A stretch of DNA of 64,000 bases, from IMG/VR virus record IMGVR_UViG_3300024521_000001, positions 44,391 to 108,390 of that record, one strand, 5' to 3'. The position numbers and the translations under genes are program-made. The notes under the pieces were generated by a model that saw nothing but the letters and a program-made list of their open reading frames with translations, was not told the origin of the DNA and did not search any database. Origin of the DNA: a virus. Its lineage: Duplodnaviria; Caudoviricetes. Shown one piece after another: positions 38,415-63,800 of this stretch. How positions within the stretch are numbered: position 1 is the first letter of the stretch; each line of letters opens with the position of its first letter.

Positions 38415-38597
38415 TTACCTCCTACTTGACGATCTTCCAGTTGCGGTCCTGGTCGGTTTTCTTTTGGTGAGTCTGCTTTTCACCGGGGACAATAACTCTT
38501 TGATTGTCCTGGCCGCTCCCGTTGGCGGGGGCTTGATCGGGACCTGTTTCTTGGGTGCGCTTTTCTTTTTCCCGCCCAATAAACCAAAAAGTGCCAT
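38415..38597 (-). CDS. small basic protein 5
   Basis: K/R-rich; ends KRKPTRTATGRSSSRR. Confidence 0.65.
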   Translation of the reverse strand: MALFGLLGGKKKSAPKKQVPIKPPPTGAARTIKELLSPVKSRLTKRKPTRTATGRSSSRR

Positions 38598-39055
38598 TAC
38601 CGTCCTCCGTATCGAGTGGACCGCCTGGTGGTCCTGGTCGATTTTCTTTTGAAGGGCCTGTTTAACTCTTGGATTGTTCGTTCTGAGGCTGTAGCCAGAG
38701 GTGTTCCTGCTGTTCCAGCGATCTTAGGGATCACATCTCCTACCATTTCGCGGGTTGTTTCCCTGGTCCTGAGAGCTCCTCCGACTCCCCTTAGAGCTCC
38801 CCTGACTGCTTTCTTTCTCCTGCTGACAGGTTTCGTTCTTGCAGCCTCGATCTTCTCTTTTGTGAGCGTCGGAGTTTGCGTTTTTGCTGGTGGGGCCGGT
38901 GTGTCCTTGTTGAAGACTTCCCGGACACGCTTCACGCGGGGATCAGTTAAGACTGCTTTCTTCGCAGCACCAGCGGTCTTTTTCGCTCCCCGGCCAATGG
39001 CACGGCCCACTGTGCCGAGGAGAGTGCCCTTTTTCTTTTTTTCTTCGTCGGCCAT
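38597..39055 (-). CDS. small basic protein 4
   Basis: K/R-rich; ends KRKSTRTTRRSTRYGGR. Confidence 0.7.
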   Translation of the reverse strand: MADEEKKKKGTLLGTVGRAIGRGAKKTAGAAKKAVLTDPRVKRVREVFNKDTPAPPAKTQTPTLTKEKIEAARTKPVSRRKKAVRGALRGVGGALRTRETTREMVGDVIPKIAGTAGTPLATASERTIQELNRPFKRKSTRTTRRSTRYGGR

Positions 39056-39262
39056 TTAATGTCTCCTTGACTCACGACTGGACTTGCGGGCTTTCTCTCG
39101 CTTGTGGTCTTCTCTTTGTTTCTTCGCAGCGCGGCCATAGACTGTAGTCCCGGCTCGCTTCTTGAGCGATTGCACACGCTGATCCCGCGCAATTTGAGCG
39201 TCCATTCGTTTAATCACGCCCTTTTGTTCAGCGGAAAGATGTGGACTGAGCTTCTCGGCCAT
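39056..39262 (-). CDS. small basic protein 3
   Basis: Ends KARKSSRESRRH. Confidence 0.7.
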   Translation of the reverse strand: MAEKLSPHLSAEQKGVIKRMDAQIARDQRVQSLKKRAGTTVYGRAAKKQREDHKREKARKSSRESRRH

Positions 39263-39265
39263 GGG

Positions 39266-39607
39266 TTATCTCCCTGACTTGCGGGCTGAGTCACGACTGG
39301 ACTTGCGGGTTTTCTTTCGTAAGGGCTTAAGACCAATTCTACCCCGCTCAAAAGGAACTTTTGGACTCCTGGGTTTTCTGCCCTCCTTGGTTCGTCCTAA
39401 GCCGATATAGCTGTGCTTCTTGAGCTCTCGCTTCTTGAACTGCTTTGGAATGATCTCTTTTTTGATGAACATTGAGGCCATACTGCCAGACCCCCGAGGA
39501 ACATCGCCTTTGGGAGCAGGGCGGCTTATTCTCTCGGACTTCATCTTGAAGCCAGCCTTCTTTTGCCCTTTTTCCCTCAATGCTCTGATTGCGTCTTTCC
39601 CAGGCAT
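39266..39607 (-). CDS. small basic protein 2
   Basis: Ends KKTRKSSRDSARKSGR. Confidence 0.7.
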   Translation of the reverse strand: MPGKDAIRALREKGQKKAGFKMKSERISRPAPKGDVPRGSGSMASMFIKKEIIPKQFKKRELKKHSYIGLGRTKEGRKPRSPKVPFERGRIGLKPLRKKTRKSSRDSARKSGR

Positions 39608-39610
39608 AGG

Positions 39611-39964
39611 TTACCTCCCTGAGCTTCGAGTTGACTTGCGGGTGGATTTGCGAGCCTTCTTCCTCATGCCAACAGGAAGCGATTCAGTGGCTCCCCTGGC
39701 TGCTCCCCCTCTCGCTGCCTCTCTAGCTTCCTTGAGCTTCTTCTGCCTTTCTGTTTCGGCTTTGGGAAACACGGCTCCTCGAAGTGTCTGACCAATGCTT
39801 CTGCCTGCACCGAGGACAATGTCGGAAACGCTGCGCTTGGGTGGGGGATTCTTCCGGACCATTTCGTGACCGGCACGTTCACTTCGACCGGCCTGGATAT
39901 CGGCGGCTCGTTGAGCCACGGTCGCTCCTTTTGGGAGCGGTTTCCTTTTTGTTGACTCTGCCAT
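39611..39964 (-). CDS. small basic protein 1
   Basis: AGGAGG SD; ends KKARKSTRKSTRSSGR. Confidence 0.7.
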   Translation of the reverse strand: MAESTKRKPLPKGATVAQRAADIQAGRSERAGHEMVRKNPPPKRSVSDIVLGAGRSIGQTLRGAVFPKAETERQKKLKEAREAARGGAARGATESLPVGMRKKARKSTRKSTRSSGR

Positions 39965-40009: not shown

Positions 40010-40041
40010 AAAGAAAAGGAGCAGCCGAAGCCGCTCCTTTT
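40010..40041 (-). terminator. intrinsic terminator
   Basis: AAAAGGAGCGGC-TTCG-GCTGCTCCTTTT followed by CTTTT on the minus strand. Confidence 0.8.
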
Positions 40042-40199
40042 AATGGCGGGAGAAAAGTTCGCCATGGTGTGGGTCACCACTTTCAGTATGGCGAAGCTGT
40101 CAAGCTGTCAGGGGAGTTATGCTACACTCTCGGTGTTCGTTTGAGTTTTTCTATCCTAGAGGCGGTAGTTGGTTGGTCCTGGCTACCGCCTCTTTTCCT

Positions 40200-40544
40200 T
40201 TATGGGCCAGTCCTGGGCCACTTCCATCCAAAGCCCCATCGAAACGGAGCCGGGATAACACCCATGCCGCCGATCTGCACACCCAGGAACATAAGCGGGG
40301 CCATCACCAGTCGAGGAACGGCCTTCGGGTAGTTTCGCCAGTTGCCTAAATCACGGAGTTTTAGAAGAGGGACCCTCTTCGTTTTGAATGTTCACCAAAA
40401 TAGAGCAGCGTCAGCCTTCACGCGCTGCCAGTATGTCCCGCCCATCCAGTAGGCCAGATCGTGCGCGTAACAGCATTGGCGCCAGTTCCCATCAAACCAC
40501 TTACTACAGCCATCGAAATGGAAGTCGTAGTCGGTTTTTATCAA
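40200..40544 (-). CDS. phospholipase A2-like protein with in-frame UGA (candidate selenoprotein)
   Basis: DGCS...CCYAHDLAY...RVKADAALFW[TGA 40392-40394]TFK...MFLGVQIGG...PFRWGFGW; the frame continues to TAA at 40200; SECIS-like hairpin at 40364-40380. Confidence 0.75.
40364..40380 (-). promoter_or_regulatory. bacterial SECIS-like hairpin
   Basis: GAAGAGG-GUC-CCUCUUC, 17 nt, starting exactly 11 nt after the UGA. Confidence 0.65.
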
Positions 40545-40909
40545 AGCAGAATGATCATCGTTGCAATACCCGCACCCCAACCGCCCAGGTCCCAGAGGGA
40601 CTTCTTCAGGGTGTAACGCGGGTCCTGCAAGGAGATGATCGCACGTTGCTCTAACTCCTGTTGACTTTCACTATTGTCGATGAGGTCTTGTAAGATCAGC
40701 CCTCTGATCTTAGCCAGCTTATTGGCATCGAAGATCTCCCGGCCGGCAATCACAGCCATCATGAAAGCTGTAGCCATGACTTTACCCAGGATGCCCGGAT
40801 CCGCATGGGACAGCGGCTCGGCCAGGAACCTCCAAACCATCATCCACACTCCGAAAGCTGAGAAGTAGTGGATTACGAATCGCTTGGCGATATGCTTTCT
40901 TTCAGACAT
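40541..40909 (-). CDS. membrane protein
   Basis: Three hydrophobic segments. Confidence 0.65.
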   Translation of the reverse strand: MSERKHIAKRFVIHYFSAFGVWMMVWRFLAEPLSHADPGILGKVMATAFMMAVIAGREIFDANKLAKIRGLILQDLIDNSESQQELEQRAIISLQDPRYTLKKSLWDLGGWGAGIATMIILL

Positions 40910-41065
40910 ATCAGAACCTCGACGGCTTTGTAGTCTTTAAGATTATCCAGGCTTTTGTTTATTGCTCTAAATTCTTGGAGAAGTAGGTGTCTGTGAGGAC
41001 CGAGATAACGGTAGCAGATCCGCCCAACAGGATCAACGATAGACCATGCCGTAACAGGAGGCACT

Positions 41066-42023: not shown

Positions 42024-42191
42024 CTAGCTCCCAAGGTAAGCGTCAATCGCCCTCCTGACAATCTCACCCTGGCTGACGTTTTTCTTTTTCGCTTCCTTCT
42101 CGAGTGTGGGCAACTGTCGAAGTTCTATGAAGTAGTTACGGCGCACCATCGTACGCCCTGGTTTGATCATGTGGACTGAGTCTTTGGTCAT
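42024..42191 (-). CDS. ribbon-helix-helix (CopG-like) regulator
   Basis: My translation: MTKDSVHMIKPGRTMVRRNYFIELRQLPTLEKEAKKKNVSQGEIVRRAIDAYLGS. Confidence 0.7.
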   Translation of the reverse strand: MTKDSVHMIKPGRTMVRRNYFIELRQLPTLEKEAKKKNVSQGEIVRRAIDAYLGS

Positions 42192-43228
42192 GCTGCTACC
42201 CGATGAACGATTGCCTGTTTCCAGAGTTTCGTTTCGTCACACTGACAGAGCATGTAGTGGATACCGACCTGATCTCCCTCGACCCAATAACCGCCAGCTG
42301 CATGAATACAGAGGCTCTCTTTCTGCTCGATCCATTTGCCCTGACGGTCCTGTTTCAGAAGTCCAATTCTCCGGTGCGCTCTGAGCCTAAAGCCTACCCC
42401 TGGCTTTTGGATGCTCGGCAAGTCCACATAGCCGTTCTTCTCGTAGTGATGGTAGAGGATATCGCCCAGGAGTTTCTTGAGGAGATTATTACCGCGGACT
42501 TCGGCAATGGCGCGGGGAGTCTCAAGGTTGGGTGGTTCGGGATGCCGTGGCTGGCCCTGGAGACCGCCTCCGAAGGGACGGTAGACGTTATCGTAATCGT
42601 TGATATTGTACCGTTGTGCCTGTAAAGCCCGATTGTCGAGAGCGTTCTGATAGTTGTCAGTATTGTACCGCTGTTGGGGCTGACCCTGAATCCGCGCTGC
42701 ATACCTCTGAGCGTCGAGTTGATCGTCGCCAAATAATTGCGCTCGCTGATTGTCGACTTGCTGATTCAGATGGTCGTTGATCCTGCCCTGGATATACTGC
42801 CCCGCTCCTCTCGCGCCTTGCTGAAAGCGGTAGTCCCACTCGGTAATCCGGAGGTTCTGGATCGCTGCGGTGGTGGTTCCATTGTTCCAGGTCGCAACCG
42901 AGTTGTCAGCCGTACCGCCAGCGTTATTGTCGAAGACAATGAGGCGATCCATGTTGTTCTGATCGTAATGAGTGCGGAGTGTTATGTCGCCGCCGAGCGC
43001 ACCTGACTGAATGGTGAGATTCGTTCCCGGCTCCAGGATGAGATTGTTGTTGGTCGCCGTCACCGCGAAATTCATGTGGTCGTCGAAGGAGATATTCGTC
43101 GGTGTTGTATCTGTAGCCGGGGTCTGAAGGCGGGCCATCCCGCCTACTGGTGGATCACCTGTTGCCACTCGACCTCCTCGACCGATAAAGCCAAAGATAT
43201 TCTCTAAAAGACTCTGCCAGAAACTCAT
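42188..43228 (-). CDS. hypothetical protein (Q/N-rich middle, LCIH...GD C-terminal domain)
   Basis: 346 aa; ATGA overlaps on both sides. Confidence 0.7.
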   Translation of the reverse strand: MSFWQSLLENIFGFIGRGGRVATGDPPVGGMARLQTPATDTTPTNISFDDHMNFAVTATNNNLILEPGTNLTIQSGALGGDITLRTHYDQNNMDRLIVFDNNAGGTADNSVATWNNGTTTAAIQNLRITEWDYRFQQGARGAGQYIQGRINDHLNQQVDNQRAQLFGDDQLDAQRYAARIQGQPQQRYNTDNYQNALDNRALQAQRYNINDYDNVYRPFGGGLQGQPRHPEPPNLETPRAIAEVRGNNLLKKLLGDILYHHYEKNGYVDLPSIQKPGVGFRLRAHRRIGLLKQDRQGKWIEQKESLCIHAAGGYWVEGDQVGIHYMLCQCDETKLWKQAIVHRVAA

Positions 43229-43482
43229 CCCCCAACGGTCTGAGGGATTCCCAGGATGCTCTCAATCTTCGGGTCGAACTTGCTGATTTTCTCGCCCTTC
43301 TTCCCGCCAAAGTTCATCTTGAAGAAGGCGTAGCCTTTCTTCTTCAGCTTGTCGAAGGTCAGCTGTGTTGCGGCCACTTCGTCTTTGTCGTCCGGATCCC
43401 ATTGCAGCTTAACGTCGCCTTCTTTAATGTCCATGAAAGCCAGTGTGTGTTTCGGTTTCTCAAGGGTTGCTGTCGGTGTCAT
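43225..43482 (-). CDS. hypothetical phage protein
   Basis: GDVKLQWDPDDKDEV...FDKLKKKGY; AAGGAG SD. Confidence 0.75.
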   Translation of the reverse strand: MTPTATLEKPKHTLAFMDIKEGDVKLQWDPDDKDEVAATQLTFDKLKKKGYAFFKMNFGGKKGEKISKFDPKIESILGIPQTVGG

Positions 43483-44373: not shown

Positions 44374-44548
44374 ATCCACTCCTTTGAACGGTTTTGGCGT
44401 TATTCGGGGAGCCGCCGAACTCTCACCCCCGACGACTCCCCTACCTGTGAAGTCCCGGACACACGGCCTGCGTGAACAAGAACCGTGGACAGACTCCACC
44501 AGGGATACTAGCACAGACGGGTGTGTATGTCGTTAAAAGAATTTAAGA

Positions 44549-44625
44549 GGGGGATCATACGGGAATCGAACCCGTGTCACCTGATTGAGCGTCAGGTATC
44601 TTTGCCAGTTAGACCAGGACCCCCC
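44549..44625 (-). tRNA. degenerate tRNA-Glu(CUC)-like element
   Basis: D arm GTCT/AGAT, anticodon arm CCTGA-CGCTCAA-TCAGG, T arm ACGGG-TTCGATT-CCCGT; G at position 33, irregular acceptor junction, no CCA. Confidence 0.7.
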
Positions 44626-63527: not shown

Positions 63528-63800
63528 ATGAAAAAACACGCCATTAAGCCTGGATCGAACGGGAAGGAAGGTTGGTGGTATGAGATCATGCCACTGACCT
63601 TCGACCGTGCCAGGATCGTCCTGACCGATGGGTACTCTGTTGACGATGGATGGTGATACGACTCACCAGGGTTGGCAGTTGTCGGCCTTGCGACATTTGA
63701 TCCTAAGACGATGGATGAACCGGAAGGATGGATGCGAAACCTGTCAACGGCTCGACGCCGGCCAGGGGGTGACCCCAAAAAGGAATATATTCGACGATGA
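63528..63800 (+). CDS. phage protein with in-frame UGA (candidate selenoprotein)
   Basis: MKKH...TDGYSVDDGW[TGA 63654-63656]YDSPGLA...EPEGWMRN..TARRRPGGDPKKEYIRR; SECIS-like hairpin at 63667-63690. Confidence 0.7.
63667..63690 (+). promoter_or_regulatory. bacterial SECIS-like hairpin
   Basis: CAGGGUUGGC-AGUU-GUCGGCCUUG, starting 10-11 nt after the UGA, with GU in the apical loop. Confidence 0.55.

Follow-up and report, generated by a model that had tools for sequence, protein, structure and literature searches.

We consider it probable that a small gene of a tailed phage encodes a selenoprotein, in which an in-frame UGA is decoded as selenocysteine (Sec) by the SelB-dependent system of the bacterial host. 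The gene lies on the minus strand of a 64,000-nucleotide stretch of viral DNA, referred to here as the window, which comprises positions 44,391 to 108,390 of the IMG/VR virus record IMGVR_UViG_3300024521_000001 (Duplodnaviria; Caudoviricetes). The source record is a 108,390-bp virus genome, rated complete by CheckV, and the window is its right-hand 64 kb. A portal, a large terminase and a major head protein are recognised in the genome by PHROG matches. The frame in question runs from TTG 40580 to a TGA at 40392–40394, continues through 63 open codons, and ends with the TAA at 40200–40202. Its predicted product resembles phospholipase A2 (PLA2), the TGA falls on a column where homologues have cysteine (Cys), and a hairpin resembling a selenocysteine insertion sequence (SECIS) follows the TGA. 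A preliminary description of the locus had proposed a Sec-containing PLA2-like protein. Its coordinates, read-through frame and quoted residues proved exact, with all elements found at the positions it gave on the minus strand, and the proposal itself is supported by the Cys column, by the conserved TGA and hairpin, and by the coding character of the frame downstream.

The read-through frame and its cysteine column

The complete open reading frame (ORF) occupies 40200–40580 on the minus strand, TAA included. It has 126 codons if translation begins at TTG 40580 and 114 codons if it begins at TTG 40544. The TGA at 40392–40394, the proposed Sec codon, is residue 63 counted from TTG 40580. The 63 codons after it (40203–40391) consist of a variable insertion (about codons 68–89) and a conserved C-terminal half with the pattern M..GV..GG....RWG.GW.

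Homologues were collected by a full HMMER pass over 1.84 billion representative proteins. The read-through product has 871 homologues at E ≤0.001 and 106 at E ≤1e-10, most of which align across the TGA. Among the best 150 of the 871 matches, every full-length protein (148 of 148) has Cys at the TGA column; the remaining two, P0002 and P0003, are the N- and C-terminal halves of the same type of gene, called as separate proteins. In an alignment of 29 sequences (A1), C25, C36, C37, H40, D41, Y44, D57 and C63 are invariant, and all 28 homologues in it have Cys at the TGA column. The residues after the UGA cover the conserved family columns 94–118 and match the C-terminal family motif (M97, G100, V101, G104, G105, R114, W115, G116, G118). 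The motifs DGCS, CCxxHDxxY, ADxxLxx[TGA] and M..GV..GG....RWG.GW of the phage sequence correspond to invariant or nearly invariant family columns. Bacteria were scanned with a profile from a smaller alignment (A2), using one genome per prokaryotic species. At least 555 relatives were found in prokaryotic genomes, and the best 80 of them, from Acidobacteriota, Desulfobacterota-type lineages, Gammaproteobacteria and others, all have Cys at this column. The check that the preliminary description had proposed, namely Cys in the UGA column of homologues, therefore holds for the full-length proteins and for the bacterial loci alike. Among phage protein families, phrog_6098 (function unassigned) matches the read-through product with E 2.4e-8 over profile positions 7–68 of 78, and the 62-aa part alone with E 1.9e-4 over positions 7–43 of 78. 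A tblastn search of the read-through protein against cultured phages gave no match. A word-indexed protein search returned nothing in the near length range and nothing in the shorter range (A1, 30–52 residues, a range that excludes the halves of 62–67 residues).

The protein is named PLA2-like for its predicted His-Asp lipase scaffold, with scores that fall short of the curated PLA2 families. Pfam finds no family on the read-through protein or on its halves, and neither the query nor any of 10 homologues scores above the curated cut-off of a Pfam PLA2 model; the homologues have sub-threshold matches only, to PF09056, PF06951, PF08398 and PF07087. The family profile matches the Streptomyces violaceoruber PLA2 structure 1faz_A with E 0.001, and 8k1w, 4aup and 7ygk more weakly. 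This match places H40 and D41, which are invariant together with Y44, on the HD of 1faz. An AlphaFold2 model has a mean predicted local distance difference test score of 74.8 and helices at 34–46, 50–66 and 90–105. Its top structural match by VIA-align is the Tuber borchii PLA2 4aup_B (Z 7.5, root mean square deviation 4.3, 89 residues; the tool's comfort level is 8), the second match has Z 5.8, and Foldseek gives no match to the PDB at E ≤0.001. Signal- or lipoprotein-like N-termini are common among the bacterial homologues and missing from the phage form.

The role of residue 63 can be approached through the few relatives that lack it. Four divergent viral homologues (L021–L024) have G or D at column 63 and have lost Cys37 as well (CF..HD, not CC), and six homologues with Cys63 keep the CC pair. 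Because the two residues are kept or lost together in this way, Cys63 most likely pairs with Cys37 of the CCxxHD helix, and a Sec63-Cys37 selenenylsulfide would therefore be expected in the phage protein. The joint loss in L021–L024 suggests that the disulfide pair is dispensable in some lineages.

Conservation of the TGA is complete among the close relatives. It is kept, with the open frame and the hairpin, in all 11 related sequences that cover the site: 7 of 7 viral contigs with 90–97% protein identity, and 4 of 4 metagenome contigs with 88–92% identity (two further contigs reach the C-terminal part only). With the window this makes 12 sequences carrying the TGA, 10 of them distinct over the surrounding 76 nt. 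The locus is also spanned by Logan contigs of two other DNA sequencing runs (X6 and X10), which have no change at 40392–40394 among the rows listed. The preliminary description had suggested looking for relatives that keep the TGA and the hairpin, and had named an assembly error and a decaying downstream part as outcomes that would undo it. The relatives do keep both elements, and neither of the two outcomes was found: the TGA recurs in 12 sequences and in the two DNA runs, and the region after it is under selection, as follows.

Downstream of the TGA, all relatives are free of additional stops and of indels. For the most divergent pair of TGA forms (L003 versus L028), the ratio of nonsynonymous to synonymous substitution rates (dN/dS) is 0.29 upstream of the TGA, 0.27 for codons 64–91 and 0.12 for codons 92–126. 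Among the 11 full-length TGA forms (the window and 10 relatives, with L007, which is cut at residue 118, left out), codons 64–91 include 12 variable codons with synonymous changes only and 7 with an amino-acid change. The two alternative frames after the UGA hold stops, except for one frame of L028. The codon directly after the TGA is ACA in the window, L001–L004 and L007, and GTG in L005, L006 and L025–L028. In the window the first in-frame start past the UGA is found only at codon 92/93. Since codons 64–91 are under selection while the next start of the ACA forms is at codon 92/93, ribosomes must pass the UGA.

The same data bear on the possibility that the UGA is a true stop and that the C-terminal half is made by re-initiation, so that two polypeptides assemble into one enzyme. 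The GTG that follows the TGA in 6 of the 11 relatives is a possible start, and gene callers have recorded the two halves of a gene of this type as separate proteins (P0002 and P0003). However, in the ACA forms no start would serve codons 64–91, which are nevertheless under purifying selection. Moreover, the break would fall at, and delete, the invariant Cys, and all the full-length homologues among the best 150 run unbroken through this point. A split gene is accordingly quite unlikely.

It could also be supposed that the TGA is a recent nonsense mutation, which would make the gene a pseudogene of a young clade, its downstream frame not yet decayed. The TGA forms are mutually close (88–97%), and the nearest more distant relative, L029 (72% identity), has TGC at the UGA position. 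This relative (L029:743-1078) shares the insertion of about 20 residues after the Cys and has an unrelated gene neighbourhood. On the other hand, the TGA forms have diverged at synonymous sites by up to about 0.4–0.6 without acquiring a stop or an indel, and dN/dS downstream stays at 0.1–0.3. The hairpin has been kept by a compensatory change, and a second such gene exists in a deeper clade, down to 64% identity (both described below). We regard a recent nonsense mutation as very improbable.

The hairpin after the UGA

The hairpin GAAGAGG-GUC-CCUCUUC occupies 40364–40380 on the minus strand and begins after an 11-nt spacer (40381–40391), exactly as the preliminary description had stated. It has a 7-bp stem, a loop of 3 nt starting with G-U and a UGA-to-loop distance of 18 nt, and the local minimum free energy (MFE) is -9.2 kcal/mol; GGUC begins 17 nt after the UGA. 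The minimal SECIS of E. coli fdhF is likewise a 17-nt stem-loop located 11 nt after the UGA. If the closing G-C pair of the phage hairpin is left open, the loop reads GGUC(C), which we take to resemble the GGUC loop of fdhF. The published model of the bacterial SECIS (bSECIS), in the part of the source available, calls for a loop of 3–9 nt, a stem of 4–16 bp, a G in the first two loop positions, a UGA-to-loop distance of 16–37 nt and an MFE ≤-7.5 (PMC13188914). The values of the phage hairpin (GUC loop, 7-bp stem, 18 nt, -9.2) lie within these published ranges.

The hairpin is conserved as a structure. Across the distinct sequences 70 of 70 stem cells are paired, compared with 53–71% in slid controls. 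Of the 10 distinct rows, 7 have A-U and 3 have C-G at stem pair 2, and the other 6 pairs never vary; the compensatory change from A-U to C-G is carried by L006, L026 and L028. The covariation score, which comes from one pair of 7 in a shallow clade, was reached by 5 of 500 shuffles. Variable columns are fewer in the hairpin (2 of 17) than in the flanking sequence (20 of 50; Fisher p 0.039), as are variable third-codon positions (1 of 6 in the hairpin, 11 of 16 outside). The spacer, by contrast, is conserved in length and variable in sequence: 8 of its 11 columns vary among the 12 sequences, with no indel.

The hairpin was also considered as an antisense terminator on the plus strand, with the tail GTTTTGAATG. 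This was rejected because the tail is the reverse complement of the spacer, which is variable and has lost its T-run in relatives, and because no plus-strand gene ends there.

Genetic code, a second UGA gene and probable dependence on the host

TGA is an ordinary stop elsewhere in this genome, as the preliminary description had held in arguing against genome-wide recoding. It is the commonest stop, ending 79 of 161 greedily chosen ORFs and 23 of 66 ORFs of ≥150 aa. Stop-codon recoding occurs in some phages, and it is on such precedent that a genome-wide or late-gene reassignment of UGA (of the code 4 or code 25 type), in the phage or in its host, could be proposed here. This is contradicted by the frequency of TGA as a stop. 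The phage genome has only two tRNA genes, tRNA-Glu(CTC) at window 44549–44622 (minus strand) and tRNA-Met(CAT) at genome C1:22620-22696 (minus strand), and no suppressor tRNA and no tRNA-Sec. Beyond the PLA2-like gene and a gene at 63528–63800, no convincing TGA was found with a hairpin and open frames on both sides. Reassignment can be set aside with near certainty.

The candidates rejected in that survey were of ordinary kinds. Other TGA-ended ORFs with long in-frame extensions proved to be adjacent in-frame genes or low-complexity off-frame stretches. For example, in a case of 444 + 376 codons outside the window an ATG stands three codons after the TGA. The TGA at 43262–43264 (minus strand) has 46–48 open codons upstream and an 8-bp hairpin 13 nt downstream; it lies 36 nt before the ATG of a 346-aa ORF (42188–43228) and is taken as an ordinary gene boundary.

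The second candidate gene (63528–63800, plus strand) has its TGA at 63654–63656, in the context DDGW[TGA]Y, with a hairpin after it. The TGA and the open frame are kept in all 11 viral relatives, at 64–87% identity, and a more divergent sequence, L123 (41% identity), has Cys at the TGA position. In 10 of 12 sequences the hairpin has a 6-bp stem and its tetraloop, GGUC, starts 20 nt past the UGA; the window and L112 have an AGUU loop with the same geometry. The gene has no PHROG family. Two independent genes with a UGA on a Cys column and G-U loops 17–20 nt downstream are hard to explain except by Sec decoding.

The remaining alternative is programmed read-through that does not involve Sec. UGA read-through is known in phage Q-beta, and a near-cognate standard tRNA (for example tRNA-Trp) could read the UGA here to give a short and a long product, with the hairpin acting as a stimulator or being irrelevant. 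The downstream frame is clearly translated, whichever residue is inserted, and a hairpin of this size is no rarity downstream of a TGA. Against this, the UGA stands on a column with Cys in every full-length homologue examined, where a conserved Cys pair would be lost with any other residue, and a second gene of the same phage also has its UGA at a Cys column. In addition, the hairpin conforms to the bSECIS rules, G-U at the start of its loop included, and its stem has been kept by a compensatory change. We judge Sec-independent read-through unlikely, and Sec insertion at UGA 40392–40394 remains the probable reading.

Several points weigh against Sec insertion. The TGA clade is shallow (88–97% protein identity), and the single compensatory pair may represent one evolutionary event. 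In the genome, 103 of 4016 TGAs (2.6%) have a stem of ≥6 bp starting 8–14 nt downstream. The hairpin is short, and its 71-nt fold does not exceed shuffled sequences in stability (z 0.27). In a single genome the hairpin is thus unremarkable, and its significance therefore comes from conservation: of TGA, frame and hairpin together, of the stem by compensatory change, of a region of low variation, and of the Cys column. Rfam at E up to 10 on both cassettes gave chance-level rows and no SECIS family, and at the gathering threshold it gave tRNA only. L029, which has TGC, carries a weaker 5-bp hairpin (GCGAG-AGCCA-CUCGC) at the same place. This could be a relic of a Sec-containing ancestor, an earlier structure later exapted, or chance, and part of the hairpin structure may be older than Sec or have arisen independently of it. 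In most known bacterial selenoproteins Sec belongs to a redox-active site, and Sec at an apparently structural disulfide position would be unusual. The lack of Sec machinery in the phage fits host dependence and lends no positive support. The large terminase has ≤28% identity to any cultured phage and no relative in the genome collection, and so points to no host. Lastly, a 279-nt contig from a metatranscriptome-labelled run (X17) covers 40117–40388 and ends 4 nt short of the TGA. A second RNA-library contig set (X18) covers 40117–40340, and X17 and X18 both also cover 40736–40950. A contig need not end where an RNA does, and DNA may have been carried over into the library, so that transcription is neither proven nor excluded by these contigs.

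Modelled on the established bacterial pathway, the molecular mechanism would run as follows. When a ribosome nears the UGA, the 17-nt hairpin 11 nt past it would be bound by host SelB together with guanosine triphosphate (GTP) and Sec-tRNA(Sec), and this complex would deliver Sec at the UGA in competition with release factor 2 (RF2). Ribosomes that terminate would release a fragment of 62 residues (or 50 residues, from the downstream start) without the C-terminal half. In E. coli, Sec recoding competes with termination and is 30–40% efficient, according to the available part of the source (PMC4513850). In the full-length product Sec would replace the family Cys63 and form the selenenylsulfide with Cys37 beside the catalytic His-Asp dyad. 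No SelA, no AIRS_C/SelD-type protein and no SelB-type or EF-Tu-type GTPase was found in the phage genome. Because the phage carries none of the machinery, it would have to rely on a host with selA, selB, selC and selD.

The habitat is compatible with such hosts. The stretch or its relatives occur in sequencing runs labelled as seawater, sediment, cold-seep and marine-sediment metagenomes, and contigs from DNA runs of a cold seep (X6) and of marine sediment (X10) cover it from end to end with about 95% likeness. Hosts rich in Sec could plausibly live in such habitats.

Taken together, these observations allow a broader and more tentative picture, which we hold to be possible and somewhat short of an even chance. 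A phage lineage of marine sediment and cold seeps may hijack the Sec machinery of its host to express two or more of its own genes. Sec in the PLA2-like enzyme would have a non-redox role, as one half of a helix-to-helix selenenylsulfide beside the active site, a bond that could form or hold in reducing, sulfidic conditions where a disulfide would not. The full-length enzyme would then depend on the selenium status of the host and on its capacity for Sec decoding, and the UGA-hairpin cassette would mark host range. The picture may extend to lysis or membrane attack, since the enzyme adjoins what may be a small membrane protein; such a role of the PLA2-like protein is speculation.

Gene neighbourhood and comparison with known systems

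Of the two TTG codons, the one at 40542–40544 (minus strand) is predicted to be the likelier start. It overlaps the TGA stop (40541–40543) of the upstream ORF as TTGA. The family alignments start near residue 16–20, and the Cys form L029 has an ATG start a few residues ahead of the common DY[DE]F motif. The upstream ORF (40541–40909, minus strand) encodes 122 aa with two to three hydrophobic stretches and is joined to the PLA2-like gene by this translational overlap. It is syntenic in relatives, with 92–97% identity in L005, L006 and L025–L027, and has no Pfam or PHROG match; its hydropathy would suit a membrane or holin-like role. Directly 3' of the TAA of the PLA2-like gene there is a 15-bp hairpin (40158–40193), listed as terminator-like on the plus strand. 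A 12-bp terminator-like hairpin with a T-tail is present on the minus strand at 40041–40014, about 160 nt beyond it. Ten ORFs around the PLA2-like gene have no Pfam match, and genomic context therefore gives no function.

Further along, at 38597–39964 on the minus strand, there are four tandem small and very basic ORFs of 152, 68, 113 and 117 aa. They have similar C-terminal tails rich in Arg, Lys, Ser and Thr that end in ..GR or ..RH, and they are set apart by hairpins and TTGACA-like motifs. None of the three that were tested has a Pfam match. Their products could be DNA-binding proteins that are packaged, or internal proteins.

Cells and a few poxviruses of eukaryotes are known to have selenoproteins, and none was found described for a bacterial virus in the literature searched. 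Full-text searches returned no title or abstract on a natural phage selenoprotein, and the phrase 'phage selenoprotein' does not occur in the papers returned by one of them. Neither a 2026 review of prokaryotic selenoproteomes nor the BSepDB paper uses 'phage', 'virus', 'viral' or 'phospholipase' in its main text, the supplementary family lists not being covered. In the available part of a 2021 review of viral recoding, poxviruses are the sole Sec cases named (PMC8310308).

If the Sec reading is true, phages can depend on an optional translation trait of their hosts. Host range would then be constrained and predictable, because only Sec-decoding bacteria would make the full-length protein. The selenoproteome would gain a protein family and a use of Sec that is structural rather than catalytic. 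There is also a consequence for annotation: phage genes of this kind come out split or truncated from standard gene callers, and the two halves of one are on record as separate proteins.

The phage protein can be compared with the microbial secreted PLA2s (S. violaceoruber 1faz/1lwb, T. borchii TbSP1 4aup, and PF09056). Like them it is small, predicted to be helical and Cys-bridged, and has the C..HD..Y arrangement. What sets the phage-gene family apart is a CC pair of its own, together with a conserved GV.GG....RWGYGW tail at the C-terminus.

With respect to decoding, the case is like the stop-codon recoding of some phages and read-through of the Q-beta type in that translation continues past a stop. 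It differs in that a single codon is affected in each of two genes, this codon stands on a Cys column, and a SECIS-type hairpin follows it. It also differs in that TGA otherwise terminates and no suppressor tRNA is present.

A viral parallel is provided by the glutathione peroxidases of molluscum contagiosum virus and fowlpox virus, which are likewise viral selenoprotein genes dependent on the Sec machinery of the host. In fowlpox the SECIS is inside the coding region, according to the available part of the source (PMC8310308). The poxviruses infect eukaryotes, have SECIS elements of the eukaryotic type and carry glutathione peroxidase genes captured from the host. In contrast, the present case concerns a bacterial virus with a bacterial-type hairpin, and PLA2-like genes of other phages or of bacteria are its closest homologues with Cys.

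Another close system is the bacterial selenoprotein gene, of which E. coli fdhF is the prototype. The phage gene is unlike such genes in being phage-borne, in a phage without any of the machinery, and in that Sec seems to replace a disulfide Cys and not a catalytic redox Cys. It is also unlike fdhF in that its stem has no bulged U. The features held in common are an in-frame UGA at the Cys position of homologues, a stem-loop within the ORF just past the UGA with a small apical loop starting with G-U, and an 18-nt UGA-to-loop spacing that lies within the consensus of 16–37 nt.

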